Positions 21,218 to 27,316 of a DNA stretch of 64,000 bases are shown here, in pieces (within the stretch, counting starts at the first letter, position 1; every line of letters starts with the position of its first letter). Source of the DNA: Roseiflexaceae bacterium. GTDB taxonomy: Bacteria > Chloroflexota > Chloroflexia > Chloroflexales > Roseiflexaceae. The notes beneath the pieces were generated by a model that ran no database searches, was not told the DNA's origin, and saw nothing but the letters and a program-made list of their open reading frames with translations. The translations under genes and the position numbers were made by a program. Where the stretch lies: positions 16,960 through 80,959 of the forward strand of contig JBBAWW010000001.1 in the NCBI GenBank assembly GCA_040397035.1. The letters run 5' to 3'.

Positions 21218-22429
21218 ATGATTACCTCATCTGCAGGCGTTGATTCACAGTACCTTTTTTCAAAAATAGTGCAACACGATGAATCTATCACCCCGATGCA
21301 TTTAGATTTGCCCGACGAGACGGATGACACAATTAGTTTAGCTTATGGTGATGCCGACCCAGCCCTCTTCCCCGTCGATGCCCTTATAGCCGCGGTGGAT
21401 AGCATGCTCACGGGCAATCTCGACATCAGCTTGAACTATGCGCCAGCCTATGCCGGTTTGGTTGCATTAGTCCAAGAGCGCATGGCACGCATCAATATAC
21501 CCCTCGCCCACAACGAAATCATGCTGGCCAATGGCTCAAGTCAGGTTTTGTCCATACTCCCACAGATTATGTGTGACCCGGGTGATGTCATAATCGTCGA
21601 AGGTCCGAGCTTCCTCGGTGCCGTCGAGACCTTTTTTAATTGTGGCTTGACCATCGAAACAGTCCCCGTGCGTGACGACGGCATGGATCTTGATATCTTG
21701 GAAGCCACCCTCACCCGCCTAGCCGCCCAAGGCATCCGCGCCAAATTCATCTACACCATTCCCACCTTCCAAAACCCCACCGGCTCGTTGATGCCCCTCG
21801 CCAATCGCCAGCGCTTGGTGGCATTGGCAGCCAAGTACGGCGTGATTATCATCGAAGACGATGCCTACGGTGATTTGCATTTCGACACCCCATTGCCCCC
21901 CAAGTTGATTGCCCTCGATCCGACGTGGGTGTTGTATGTGGGCACCTTCTCCAAAATCCTCGCCCCTGGCGTGCGGATGGCGTGGGCCTGTGGGCCGGCC
22001 GAAATCATTAAACGGCTGAACCGCTTCAAAACTGAAGGCAGCAATGGTCCCTTTATGACCCGCCTGGTGGCGCAAGTATCAGCCGATGGCTGGCTTGACC
22101 AACACATCGCCCTGCTCAATGCCAATTACGCAAAAAAATGTCAAGCCATGCTCTCCACCATCGCTGAGGCCTTCCCCAGCGATGTGCGCTACAACCGCCC
22201 ACAAGGGGGATTTTTTGTTTATGCCTATCTACCTGCTGACTTACCCGTAAGTCGCTTGTTGCCGGCCGCCATTGCTAATGGGGTATCATTTTTGCCAGGT
22301 ACGACCTGTTATGCCGATGGGCAAGGGACACACGAAATCCGGCTGGCGTTTAGTTTTCAATCCCTTGAAAAAGTGGTTGAAGGCATTCGGCGGCTCGGTG
22401 CGACCATGCATCAACTTCGTCAGGCATAG
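21218..22429 (+). CDS. PLP-dependent aminotransferase, class I/II (ARO8/LysN/kynurenine-aminoadipate aminotransferase-like), copy 1
   Basis: 403 aa with a strong AAGGAG SD. PTFQNPTG and the PLP-lysine motif GTFSKILAPGVRMAW. Confidence 0.8.
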   Translation: MITSSAGVDSQYLFSKIVQHDESITPMHLDLPDETDDTISLAYGDADPALFPVDALIAAVDSMLTGNLDISLNYAPAYAGLVALVQERMARINIPLAHNEIMLANGSSQVLSILPQIMCDPGDVIIVEGPSFLGAVETFFNCGLTIETVPVRDDGMDLDILEATLTRLAAQGIRAKFIYTIPTFQNPTGSLMPLANRQRLVALAAKYGVIIIEDDAYGDLHFDTPLPPKLIALDPTWVLYVGTFSKILAPGVRMAWACGPAEIIKRLNRFKTEGSNGPFMTRLVAQVSADGWLDQHIALLNANYAKKCQAMLSTIAEAFPSDVRYNRPQGGFFVYAYLPADLPVSRLLPAAIANGVSFLPGTTCYADGQGTHEIRLAFSFQSLEKVVEGIRRLGATMHQLRQA

Positions 22430-22503
22430 GCTGTTGATAAACGGGTATTTTATTTCTGTTACAATACATGCGGATTTCTCCCGCACAGAATAGGAAATGT
22501 ATC

Positions 22504-24993: not shown

Positions 24994-26040
24994 GTGGTTG
25001 TGAGTTTAGTTGATGATGTTCGGGTCCGCGAAATGGGATATATGCCGTCGCCACGTGCGCTCAAACAACAGTATCCGCTTTCGCCCAATATGCTGACTAC
25101 CGTCTATGAATCACGGCAGATGATTCGGCGGATTGTCAATGGTGAAGATTCGCGGTTGCTGGTGGTAATTGGACCATGTTCTATCCATGATATTGCGGCA
25201 ACCCATGATTATGCCAAAAAATTAGCCGAAGTGGCTGCGCGCATGCGCGACCGCATGCTCATCGTGATGCGTGTCTATCTCGAAAAACCGCGCACCACCG
25301 TCGGCTGGCGTGGGCTCATCAACGACCCCCATCTCGATGGCTCGTTTGATATGGGTGCTGGTCTCGAAATCGCCCGTAAACTCTTGTGTGATATTACCGC
25401 CATGGGGCTCCCTACCGCCACCGAAATGCTCGACCCTATCAGTGCCCAATATACGTCTGATTTGGTCGTCCTGGCGGCGATTGGAGCCCGTACTACCGAA
25501 TCTCAGATGCACCGTGCCTTAGCGAGTGGCTTGTCAATGCCCGTAGGCTTCAAAAACGGCACTGATGGCTCAATTGATGTGGCAGTGCATGCCTGTATTT
25601 CTGGCGCTGCGCCCCACAGCTTCCTCGGAATCACCCAAGATGGCCAAGGTGCCGTGGTCAAAACCACCGGCAATCCCGATGGTTTTGTGATTTTGCGCGG
25701 CAGCCGACTGGGCACCAATTACGACGATGCCAGTGTCACCAAAACCATCGATCTCATGCAGGCCGCCAAATTGTCTCCCGCCGTCATGATCGATTGTAGC
25801 CACGCCAATTCAGGCTCTGACCATCGCCGCCAACGGGTGGTATGGCAATCGGGACTGGCCTTGCGCAAACAAGGTGTCAGCCAAATGATTGGCATGATGG
25901 TCGAAAGTAATTTGTTTGCAGGTAAACAAAATATCGGCGCAGATATCAATAATCTGCAATACGGCGTTTCCGTCACTGATGCCTGTGTGGGTTGGGATGA
26001 AACCGTCGCCATGCTTGAAGAGGTCTACAATGACGTATAA
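24994..26040 (+). CDS. 3-deoxy-7-phosphoheptulonate (DAHP) synthase, class I alpha (AroF/G/H-like)
   Basis: IGPCSIHD, KPRTTVGWRGLINDP and IDCSHANS motifs. The start is GTG 24994 or the in-frame GTG 25000 (GAGGTG SD). Confidence 0.88.
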   Translation: MVVSLVDDVRVREMGYMPSPRALKQQYPLSPNMLTTVYESRQMIRRIVNGEDSRLLVVIGPCSIHDIAATHDYAKKLAEVAARMRDRMLIVMRVYLEKPRTTVGWRGLINDPHLDGSFDMGAGLEIARKLLCDITAMGLPTATEMLDPISAQYTSDLVVLAAIGARTTESQMHRALASGLSMPVGFKNGTDGSIDVAVHACISGAAPHSFLGITQDGQGAVVKTTGNPDGFVILRGSRLGTNYDDASVTKTIDLMQAAKLSPAVMIDCSHANSGSDHRRQRVVWQSGLALRKQGVSQMIGMMVESNLFAGKQNIGADINNLQYGVSVTDACVGWDETVAMLEEVYNDV

Positions 26041-27316
26041 TCCTCCCCTTGTATCTGCCGGGCTGGCAGGAGCACAGCAGGCCGACAGCCTTGACCCCGT
26101 TGCCGCATATCGTGATCAATTTGTAATTGCTGACCCAAGTATCGTCTACTTCGACGGCAATTCGCTGGGGCGCATGCCCAAGCAAACCGCTGAACACTTG
26201 CACCACGTCATCCACACCGAATGGAGCGATGGCTTGATTCGTGGCTGGGGACGGGGCTGGTACGAAGCACCGGCCCGCATCGGCGACAAAATAGGCCAAC
26301 TGCTCGGCGCTGGCCCCGGCCAAGTACTAGCGTGTGATTCGACCTCGGTCAACCTCTACAAATTGGTGATGGCGGCACTGCAAGCCCGCCCAGACCGCAC
26401 CGAGATTGTCAGCGACGCCCTCAACTTCCCTTCTGACCTGTATATCATGCAAGGGGCGATTGCCCACTACGGGCACCGCCATCAATTGCGGCTGGTGGCG
26501 TCACGCGACAACGAATTGACCGTCACTGCCGATGATTTGTACGCCCTCATCACTCCCCAAACCGCCGTAGTAGTCCTCTCGCATGTCACTTTCAAAAGTG
26601 GCTTCATCTATGACATGCAGGCCATCACCCAAAAAGCCCACGCCGTAGGGGCGTTGGTAATCTGGGATTTGAGTCATTCTGCCGGCGCGGTGCCGATGGA
26701 ACTCGATGCCTGGCAGGTCGACATGGTCGTCGGCTGTGGCTACAAATTCCTCAATGGCGGTCCGGGCGCACCGGCGTTTTTGTACATCAACAAATCCATC
26801 CAAGATCAGGTGCAGTCACCGATTTGGGGCTGGTTTGGCCAAAAAGCCCCCTTTGCCTTTGATTTGCAGTACGAACCAGCACCTGGCCTGGCCCGCTTCC
26901 TTGCTGGGACCCCCCCCATGCTGTCACTTTCGGCTGTCGAATCTGCGGTTGACATGCTCAATCAGGTAGGCATGCCGGCGATTCGCGCCAAGTCAGTGGC
27001 CATCACCGAATATATGATTGCCTTGTTTGATGCCCATTTGGCTGACCTCGGCTTTACCATGGGTAGTCCAAGAGATACCGCCATCCGTGGTTCGCATGTG
27101 AGCATTCGCCATCCCTTGGGCTATCAGATCAACCAAGCCTTGATTGCCGAAATGCAGGTTATCCCCGACTTCCGCGAACCTGACAACTTGCGCCTCGGGC
27201 TCAGCCCATTGACCACCTCGTTCGTCGAGGTCTGGTTGGGCGTTGACCGCATCCGCCATGCCGTCAGCCAAGGGCTGCACCACAAATACCCGGCCACCCG
27301 GGCCGCCGTCACCTAA
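26030..27316 (+). CDS. kynU: kynureninase-family PLP hydrolase
   Basis: Start at ATG 26030 (MTYNPP), overlapping the DAHP synthase end by 11 nt. Family motifs YFDGNSLG, WDLSHSAGAVP and CGYKFLNGGPGAP (PLP lysine). Confidence 0.8.
   Translation: MTYNPPLVSAGLAGAQQADSLDPVAAYRDQFVIADPSIVYFDGNSLGRMPKQTAEHLHHVIHTEWSDGLIRGWGRGWYEAPARIGDKIGQLLGAGPGQVLACDSTSVNLYKLVMAALQARPDRTEIVSDALNFPSDLYIMQGAIAHYGHRHQLRLVASRDNELTVTADDLYALITPQTAVVVLSHVTFKSGFIYDMQAITQKAHAVGALVIWDLSHSAGAVPMELDAWQVDMVVGCGYKFLNGGPGAPAFLYINKSIQDQVQSPIWGWFGQKAPFAFDLQYEPAPGLARFLAGTPPMLSLSAVESAVDMLNQVGMPAIRAKSVAITEYMIALFDAHLADLGFTMGSPRDTAIRGSHVSIRHPLGYQINQALIAEMQVIPDFREPDNLRLGLSPLTTSFVEVWLGVDRIRHAVSQGLHHKYPATRAAVT

Follow-up and report, generated by a model that had tools for sequence, protein, structure and literature searches.

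A stretch of 64,000 nucleotides (nt) from a freshwater Roseiflexaceae bacterium, represented by a metagenome-assembled genome (MAG) of 3.4 Mb and 89% completeness, is referred to here as the window. It contains an operon in which two aminotransferases (AT1 and AT2), a transporter of the major facilitator superfamily (MFS), 3-deoxy-D-arabino-heptulosonate 7-phosphate (DAHP) synthase and kynureninase (KynU) are encoded by five plus-strand open reading frames (ORFs). The operon region spans 21218-27316, all coordinates being positions within the window, and the following features were identified at the locus.

20622..21158, plus strand: PadR-family regulator, 178 amino acids (aa), PadR-1 size, likely start ATG at 20644; PF03551 at 36 bits against a cut-off of 27
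21156..21185, plus strand: promoter-like site, TAAACA-18 nt-TATAAT, in the PadR-AT1 spacer; 10 of 12 consensus positions match, a consensus match only
21218..22429, plus strand: AT1, fold-type I aminotransferase, 403 aa; PF00155 at 108 bits
22468..23709, plus strand: AT2, aminotransferase of the same family as AT1, 413 aa; PF00155 at 122 bits
23709..24974, plus strand: MFS transporter with 12 transmembrane segments, 421 aa; PF07690 (MFS_1) at 96.7 bits
24994..26040, plus strand: DAHP synthase, class I-alpha, AroF-like; TIGR00034 at 461.5 bits against a cut-off of 173.2 and PRK12755 at 489 bits against 343
26030..27316, plus strand: KynU, predicted L-kynurenine-preferring bacterial type; TIGR01814 at 288.1 bits against a cut-off of 246.4
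27325..27366, no single strand: bidirectional intrinsic-terminator-like hairpin, with an 18-pair stem in which 10 of the pairs are G-C, preceded by an A-run and followed by a T-run

The layout is that of an operon, with co-directional genes, tight or overlapping junctions and one common terminator-like hairpin. The PadR gene, which is divergent from an operon of MmpS-like, MFS and ferredoxin genes, ends 59 nt upstream of AT1 on the same strand. A perfect palindrome, ATACCGGTAT, shares positions with the -10 element of the promoter-like site in this spacer, and most species of the genus have a -10 element resembling TATAAT or TACAAT between PadR and AT1. AAGGAG is located 6 nt ahead of the AT1 ATG, a gap of 38 nt separates AT1 from AT2, and the start of the MFS gene overlaps the AT2 stop codon (TAATG at 23709). 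The gap between the MFS and DAHP synthase genes is approximately 20-25 nt, the likelier DAHP synthase start being a GTG at 25000, 7 nt after GAGG, and the last 11 nt of the DAHP synthase gene overlap KynU, whose ATG is at 26030. Beyond KynU, the hairpin separates the operon from a convergent methyltransferase gene. The five-gene layout described in the initial annotation, including the ORF coordinates, the TAATG overlap, the 11-nt overlap at 26030..26040 and the PadR and terminator boundaries, was confirmed, and all five gene identities were borne out by family searches. Within the operon, these searches found no enzymes beyond the four enzyme genes and no scaffold, tailoring or resistance genes.

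Comparison with related genomes revealed that the order PadR-AT1-AT2-MFS-DAHP synthase-KynU, the overlaps and the flanks are kept in approximately 17 species-level loci of the genus at protein identities of 55-98%, the PadR gene being syntenic in all full-length loci. Outside the genus, KynU never adjoins the other four genes. Orthologues in Roseiflexus include KynU (approximately 51% identity), DAHP synthase (61%), a single aminotransferase (60%) and an MFS protein (38%), and in a complete Roseiflexus genome (G323) the KynU, DAHP synthase, aminotransferase and MFS orthologues are located at 5.61, 3.47, 1.14 and 0.50 Mb, respectively. They are unlinked in Chloroflexus as well. Their neighbours in the two genera are unrelated (DapB, a Crp-family regulator, DHDPS, DarT-macro and an M16 peptidase) and give no functional hint; a D-2-hydroxyacid dehydrogenase gene precedes the Chloroflexus aminotransferase. 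Scattering of the same genes in relatives, which had been named at the outset as evidence against a module, was thus found outside the genus, in Roseiflexus and Chloroflexus, but not inside it, where the operon is kept. Judging from these comparisons, the operon appears to be a lineage-specific consolidation of old, vertically inherited scattered genes, with the aminotransferase duplicated in tandem. As the orthologues lie megabases apart in Roseiflexus, the genes seem to have been brought together, which argues for selection for co-expression.

Another explanation of this assembly, possible though doubtful, is that streamlining in a 3.2-Mb planktonic lineage packed unrelated housekeeping genes into a co-transcribed, functionally loose set. 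Orthologues scattered beside unrelated genes in Roseiflexus and Chloroflexus would be expected from such packing, as would gene families that do not strictly co-occur across genera and flanks that are as syntenic as the operon. However, all four enzyme genes belong to families that include aromatic amino-acid enzymes, an unlikely random draw from approximately 3000 genes. Moreover, the start-stop overlaps of DAHP synthase/KynU and AT2/MFS are kept between species at 55-80% identity, and the aminotransferase was duplicated in place, with pyridoxal 5'-phosphate (PLP) motifs in both copies.

Freshwater metatranscriptome data from four studies were also used to characterize the expression of the operon. 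Contigs 90-99% identical to the window cover AT1 through KynU, and three of the four junctions are bridged by RNA-library contigs, including AT2/MFS (study P4), MFS/DAHP synthase (P2) and DAHP synthase/KynU (P4). Such contigs can hold DNA carry-over and a single transcript is not provable from them; the bridging contigs fit co-transcription, short of proof. The search covered small shares of the runs (5-7%), the majority of the contigs being from relatives 90-95% identical. No RNA-library contig was found for PadR and the first half of AT1, which at this small sampling is uninformative either way.

With regard to the host, a fused pufLM gene was found in 22 of 24 sister genomes of the genus, which is predicted from gene content to be phototrophic. 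This reaction-centre gene was not found in the window's own MAG (89% complete), a gap that probably reflects incomplete assembly or binning. The records of related loci are titled as freshwater Roseiflexaceae or Chloroflexota MAGs. A few that have the same operon and flanks at 73-90% identity (loci L014, L015, L021, L022, L030 and L032) nevertheless bear the names Singulisphaera sp., uncultured Klebsiella sp. or Thermoflexus hugenholtzii, and these titles of genus members look like taxonomy labelling errors.

The last gene of the operon appears to encode a genuine L-kynurenine-type kynureninase, whose predicted products are anthranilate and L-alanine. Its TIGR01814 score above cut-off and its full-length alignment (residues 19-406) with the Pseudomonas fluorescens kynureninase 1QZ9 (E 3.4e-102) place it among true kynureninases, and not among other class V PLP enzymes, the possibility that had been raised against this identification. 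It also carries the KYNU_C domain (PF22580, 99.7 bits). W73, D213, Y238-K239, G293-T294 and R388 are invariant across 25 aligned orthologues, including 13 from the genus, five from Roseiflexus and Chloroflexus, which lack tryptophan dioxygenase (TDO), and seven that adjoin a TDO gene. In the P. fluorescens enzyme we take K227, with a preceding Tyr, to be the PLP lysine, D201 the PLP-N1 Asp and R375 the substrate-carboxylate Arg, as in the literature on 1QZ9 and 2HZP; the counterparts in KynU are Y238-K239, D213 and R388. Lima et al. (2009) reportedly linked a Trp64/Gly281/Thr282 triad to the L-kynurenine type and His/Ser/Asn to the 3-hydroxykynurenine type. At these positions the alignment shows W73 and G293-T294 in KynU, which is the pattern of the P. 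fluorescens enzyme and differs from that of the human one. Since the specificity residues are the same in orphan and TDO-linked orthologues, nothing suggests a changed substrate.

An enzymatic source of kynurenine was searched for in a wider set of genomes. The observation in the initial annotation that the window holds neither tryptophan dioxygenase nor a cyclase-type kynurenine formamidase proved correct, and the absence of TDO was found to hold for 25 genomes from the genus and for 42 from two families. TDO (PF03301) was detected in none of the 25 genus genomes, 18 of which are at least 90% complete, while positive-control genomes responded, nor in any of the 21 Roseiflexaceae and 21 Chloroflexaceae genomes; it was found in 7 of 15 and 11 of 13 genomes of the order's two other families. 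The cyclase-type formamidase (PF04199) was not found in the window or in the rest of its genome, which is 89% complete, and an alpha/beta-hydrolase-type formamidase may still exist. Searches for indoleamine 2,3-dioxygenase (IDO, PF01231) in the 25 genus genomes and for 3-hydroxyanthranilate dioxygenase (PF06052) gave no match, and with the control genomes equally silent both searches are uninformative. As no tryptophan-oxidising enzyme was found in the lineage, KynU would not be able to finish an endogenous route from tryptophan to kynurenine. It was also observed that TDO is missing from the phototroph-holding families Roseiflexaceae and Chloroflexaceae, although several of their genera carry kynureninase; the order-wide pattern of TDO and phototrophy is phylogenetically confounded.

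Compared with the canonical kynA-kynB-kynU pathway of Pseudomonas, Bacillus and Ralstonia, KynU is an orthologue of the P. fluorescens enzyme with identical catalytic and specificity residues, whereas kynA (TDO) was found in none of the 25 genus genomes, and the genome that holds the window gave no match to the cyclase-type kynB family. More distant Chloroflexota, in contrast, keep kynU beside TDO. In MAGs titled Chloroflexi, Anaerolineales and Ardenticatenaceae, KynU follows the TDO gene, and in the genome G025 the two genes abut. Four groundwater and lake MAGs (loci L034, L036, L037 and L039) hold TDO and KynU together with a flavin adenine dinucleotide (FAD) monooxygenase fused to a PNPOx-like domain, an enoyl-CoA hydratase, RidA and an AMP-dependent ligase, a set that looks like a catabolic cluster leading from tryptophan through anthranilate to a CoA thioester.

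The possible fate of anthranilate was examined in the same genome. The tryptophan branch beyond anthranilate is present, with TrpD encoded on contig C50 and TrpA on C22, as is anthranilate synthase, whose TrpE and TrpG genes are intact on C8; none of these genes lies in the operon. An anthranilate dioxygenase equivalog was not found, only a Rieske oxygenase at 93 bits against a cut-off of 672; tryptophan synthesis is thus the only visible fate of anthranilate.

The DAHP synthase of the operon has E. coli AroF as its best PDB match (6AGM, E 2e-113), and its GPCSIHD, DCSHANS, VESN and VTDAC blocks align with AroF and AroG. A Gly occupies the position of AroG Ser211, and neither the AroH nor the AroG equivalog model reaches its cut-off. 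Hartmann et al. (2003) are said to have given a rule that relates the Ser211 position to the feedback type. The enzyme may belong to the Tyr-regulated type, as its sequence suggests. Like E. coli AroF/AroG/AroH and the DAHP synthase of the Simkania trp operon, it is a putative feedback-type class I-alpha enzyme, one of two isoenzymes, and stands with aromatic-branch genes; it differs in that its regulatory type is predicted from the Gly at the Ser211 position and the AroF best match, and in its other operon partners. The genome's other DAHP synthase is a class I-beta paralogue on contig C63. Family models match this ORF (G000 C63, L063:1462-2313, minus strand, 283 aa) only from residue 84 (model positions 135-332 of 338), which could mean a divergent N-terminus, a broken gene or a wrongly assigned start. 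The ORF next to it is prfB, split as expected at the programmed frameshift.

Of 18 Chloroflexaceae, 17 have an orthologue of the operon DAHP synthase that stands alone, and the same holds for both of the other Roseiflexaceae genera that were sampled; the identities are 57-63%. Given these lone orthologues, the enzyme appears to be an old, vertically inherited gene of the lineage and not a cluster-specific copy. The idea that a dedicated DAHP synthase marks a cluster for a specialised aromatic product could therefore not be upheld, since its orthologues are alone in relatives and no scaffold or tailoring genes accompany it.

These findings bear directly on a biosynthesis-and-export module, the first option of the initial annotation, in which the extra DAHP synthase would raise shikimate flux towards a product of the anthranilate or kynurenate type (an aromatic amine or a quinoline acid), the aminotransferases and KynU would form that product, the MFS protein would export it and PadR would control the genes. 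PadR regulators often control efflux pumps, and KAT-II-family aminotransferases, the closest structures here being PH0207 and human KAT II, can make kynurenate from kynurenine. A second DAHP synthase is indeed present besides the class I-beta enzyme, and some sources label the MFS protein 'DHA1', an exporter family. However, neither TDO nor IDO (the latter with a silent control) was found in the genus, leaving no visible de novo route to kynurenine, and no visible step would lead extra shikimate flux to kynurenine or kynurenate. In addition, the class I-alpha DAHP synthase is vertically inherited, near-universal and alone in Chloroflexaceae and Roseiflexaceae, resistance genes are missing along with scaffold and tailoring genes, and anthranilate is already made by TrpEG. 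With no tryptophan-to-kynurenine step found, this explanation is less likely than salvage, and we regard it as decidedly unlikely.

Both aminotransferases are assigned, from sequence comparison, to the PH0207/MsAT/LysN/KAT-II (Aro8) family of fold type I; the ARO8/KAT-II-like family call made earlier agrees with the PF00155 matches and the nearest structures, and the family spans several substrate classes. Its activities cover aromatic amino acids, kynurenine, 2-aminoadipate and alanine:glyoxylate. In the PDB, AT1 matches 1X0M/3AOV (E 1e-67) and AT2 matches 1X0M (E 2e-69), the closest solved relatives being PH0207, Thermococcus litoralis MsAT and Thermus LysN, with human KAT II and yeast Aro8 further off. 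Compared with the characterized members (Pyrococcus horikoshii PH0207, T. litoralis MsAT, Thermus thermophilus LysN and human KAT II; E 1e-63 to 2e-69), which belong to the same family, a tandem duplicate pair with one fast-diverging copy is found here. AT1 and AT2 are 60% identical, and the PLP-lysine motif GTFSKILAPGVRMA is intact in both. In a maximum-likelihood tree they form sister clades (100/100), with the single Roseiflexus copy as the next branch (weaker, 82/76) and with longer branches for AT1, a topology that places the duplication at the base of the genus. AT1 thus appears to be the faster-evolving copy and AT2 the conserved one, orthologous to the single copy of Roseiflexus and Chloroflexus; AT2 orthologues at 51-60% identity were found in other Chloroflexales genera (G323, G261 and others). 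A 41-nt tract that encodes GTFSKILAPGVRMA is identical between AT1 (21941-21981) and AT2 (23221-23261), inside a 233-nt stretch at 79% identity, and might result from gene conversion between the two tandem copies or from strong constraint.

The pairing of aminotransferases with KynU has led us to consider a transaminate-then-hydrolyse scheme, in which the aminotransferases would turn 4-substituted 2,4-dioxo acids (acyl- or aroylpyruvates) into beta-keto alpha-amino acids, and KynU would cleave these to a carboxylic acid and alanine, the alanine returning the amino group. Kynureninases hydrolyse beta-keto alpha-amino acids in general, no endogenous kynurenine source is visible, and an aminotransferase adjoins KynU in an unrelated Solirubrobacteraceae MAG as well. 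On the other hand, the pocket residues for kynurenine preference are the same as in TDO-linked orthologues, nothing in the operon makes a dioxo acid, and the DAHP synthase is left unexplained, so that this scheme is considered highly improbable. In the Solirubrobacteraceae MAG (L060:6128-9209), a class I/II aminotransferase 32% identical to AT2 lies directly upstream of kynureninase, the sole other adjacency of this kind among the loci examined.

The MFS homologues listed with an organism in their source name are from Roseiflexaceae or other Chloroflexota MAGs. Their names are generic, with a few 'DHA1 family' (Joint Genome Institute, JGI) or 'melibiose symporter-like' entries, and transport direction is not settled by them. 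The aromatic-residue content of the operon proteins was computed too and rejected as evidence, being too weak to use.

Taken together, the locus is tentatively read as a genus-specific operon that manages the aromatic amino-acid pool and in which pre-formed kynurenine would be salvaged to anthranilate and alanine. Salvage had been the second option of the initial annotation and is the one favoured here. As KynU occurs without a tryptophan-to-kynurenine enzyme, it most likely acts on pre-formed kynurenine, which could be taken up from lake water after excretion by phytoplankton or could arise by non-enzymatic photo-oxidation of tryptophan in an oxic-water phototroph. Through the TrpD-C-F-B-A steps, the anthranilate would become tryptophan again. 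De novo aromatic flux would be raised by the co-expressed DAHP synthase, and the aminotransferases would convert aromatic (or kynurenine-type) amino acids into the corresponding 2-oxo acids and back. One of these aromatic compounds may be carried by the MFS protein, with a weak lean to uptake. The PadR family typically senses aromatic ligands, and the PadR protein may control the operon.

Several precedents are relevant to this proposal. In Chlamydia caviae, kynU lies inside the trp operon and recaptures host kynurenine as anthranilate, and in Simkania a DAHP synthase lies inside the trp operon as a pathway-dedicated isoenzyme (PMC3937554). Moreover, phytoplankton excrete kynurenine, including Prochlorococcus, which is without the pathway and whose kynurenine has been ascribed to oxidation of tryptophan by reactive oxygen species (ROS) in photosystem II (PMC13012070). 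The chlamydial and Simkania precedents and phytoplankton kynurenine, along with a canonical kynureninase in a lineage where no tryptophan-oxidising enzyme was found, favour a role in aromatic supply and kynurenine salvage. In the part of PMC3937554 that treats the trp operon of Chlamydia caviae/felis/pecorum (citing Xie et al. 2002), kynU is described without a TDO of its own, among aromatic biosynthesis genes, and is thought to turn external kynurenine into anthranilate for tryptophan synthesis, which resembles what is proposed here. According to the same part of that source, its partners are trpD, trpC, trpF, trpB, trpA and prsA, whereas in the window kynU is joined to DAHP synthase, two aminotransferases and an MFS gene. 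Anthranilate synthase is kept in the present genome, so that salvage would supplement synthesis, not replace it, and the host is a free-living lake phototroph.

A number of points weigh against this assignment. Synteny in the genus extends over the entire 12-kb neighbourhood, which makes a conserved gene order weak evidence by itself, and Chloroflexales genera do not always have KynU, the aminotransferase and the class I-alpha DAHP synthase together. The DAHP synthase looks like a Tyr type, not a Trp type, and no formamidase was found for N-formylkynurenine. The trp genes are unlinked to the operon and anthranilate synthase is intact, so that, unlike C. caviae, the host does not depend on salvage. 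In addition, a few JGI names place the MFS protein in an exporter family ('DHA1 family'), the RNA-library contigs may include DNA and leave one transcript unproven, and the substrate, transport direction and regulator ligand are predictions from sequence.

A broader evolutionary scenario, rather unlikely as a whole, would be that Roseiflexaceae and Chloroflexaceae lost TDO and kept KynU as a damage-salvage enzyme, which in the lake genus was wired into a PadR-controlled module for oxidised-tryptophan recycling, together with a transporter, a duplicated aminotransferase and DAHP synthase. The kynurenine would then come from light-driven ROS acting on free or protein-bound tryptophan, or would be released by neighbouring phytoplankton.

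All of the genes belong to well-known families; the novelty lies in how they are arranged and in the lack, across genus and family, of a source of kynurenine. In a literature set of 8.4 million texts, kynureninase, DAHP synthase and operon were mentioned together in a single paper, and texts that pair kynureninase with Chloroflexi or Chloroflexus were about other subjects. Kynurenine is now measured as a common phytoplankton exometabolite, and its consumers in surface waters are little known. If the salvage proposal is true, an abundant freshwater phototroph lineage would carry a compact, regulated module that turns kynurenine into tryptophan precursors, which would provide a concrete gene marker for kynurenine cycling in lakes and a free-living counterpart of the chlamydial tryptophan-recapture operon. 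Even if it is wrong, the DAHP synthase here is no marker of a natural-product cluster. The locus also offers a clean, datable case of operon assembly, in which four genes that lie megabases apart in Roseiflexus appear as translationally coupled neighbours, one of them duplicated in place.

At the far end of the window, the Rieske oxygenase mentioned above (62216-63301) was considered as an anthranilate dioxygenase and rejected on its score; its best match is weak and GbcA-like. It is the alpha subunit in a plus-strand group at 60855-63998 that also includes a dioxygenase-like hydroxylase, an FKBP isomerase and the start of a P450 gene. By score unrelated to anthranilate dioxygenase, this group may represent a small oxidative tailoring or catabolic set.

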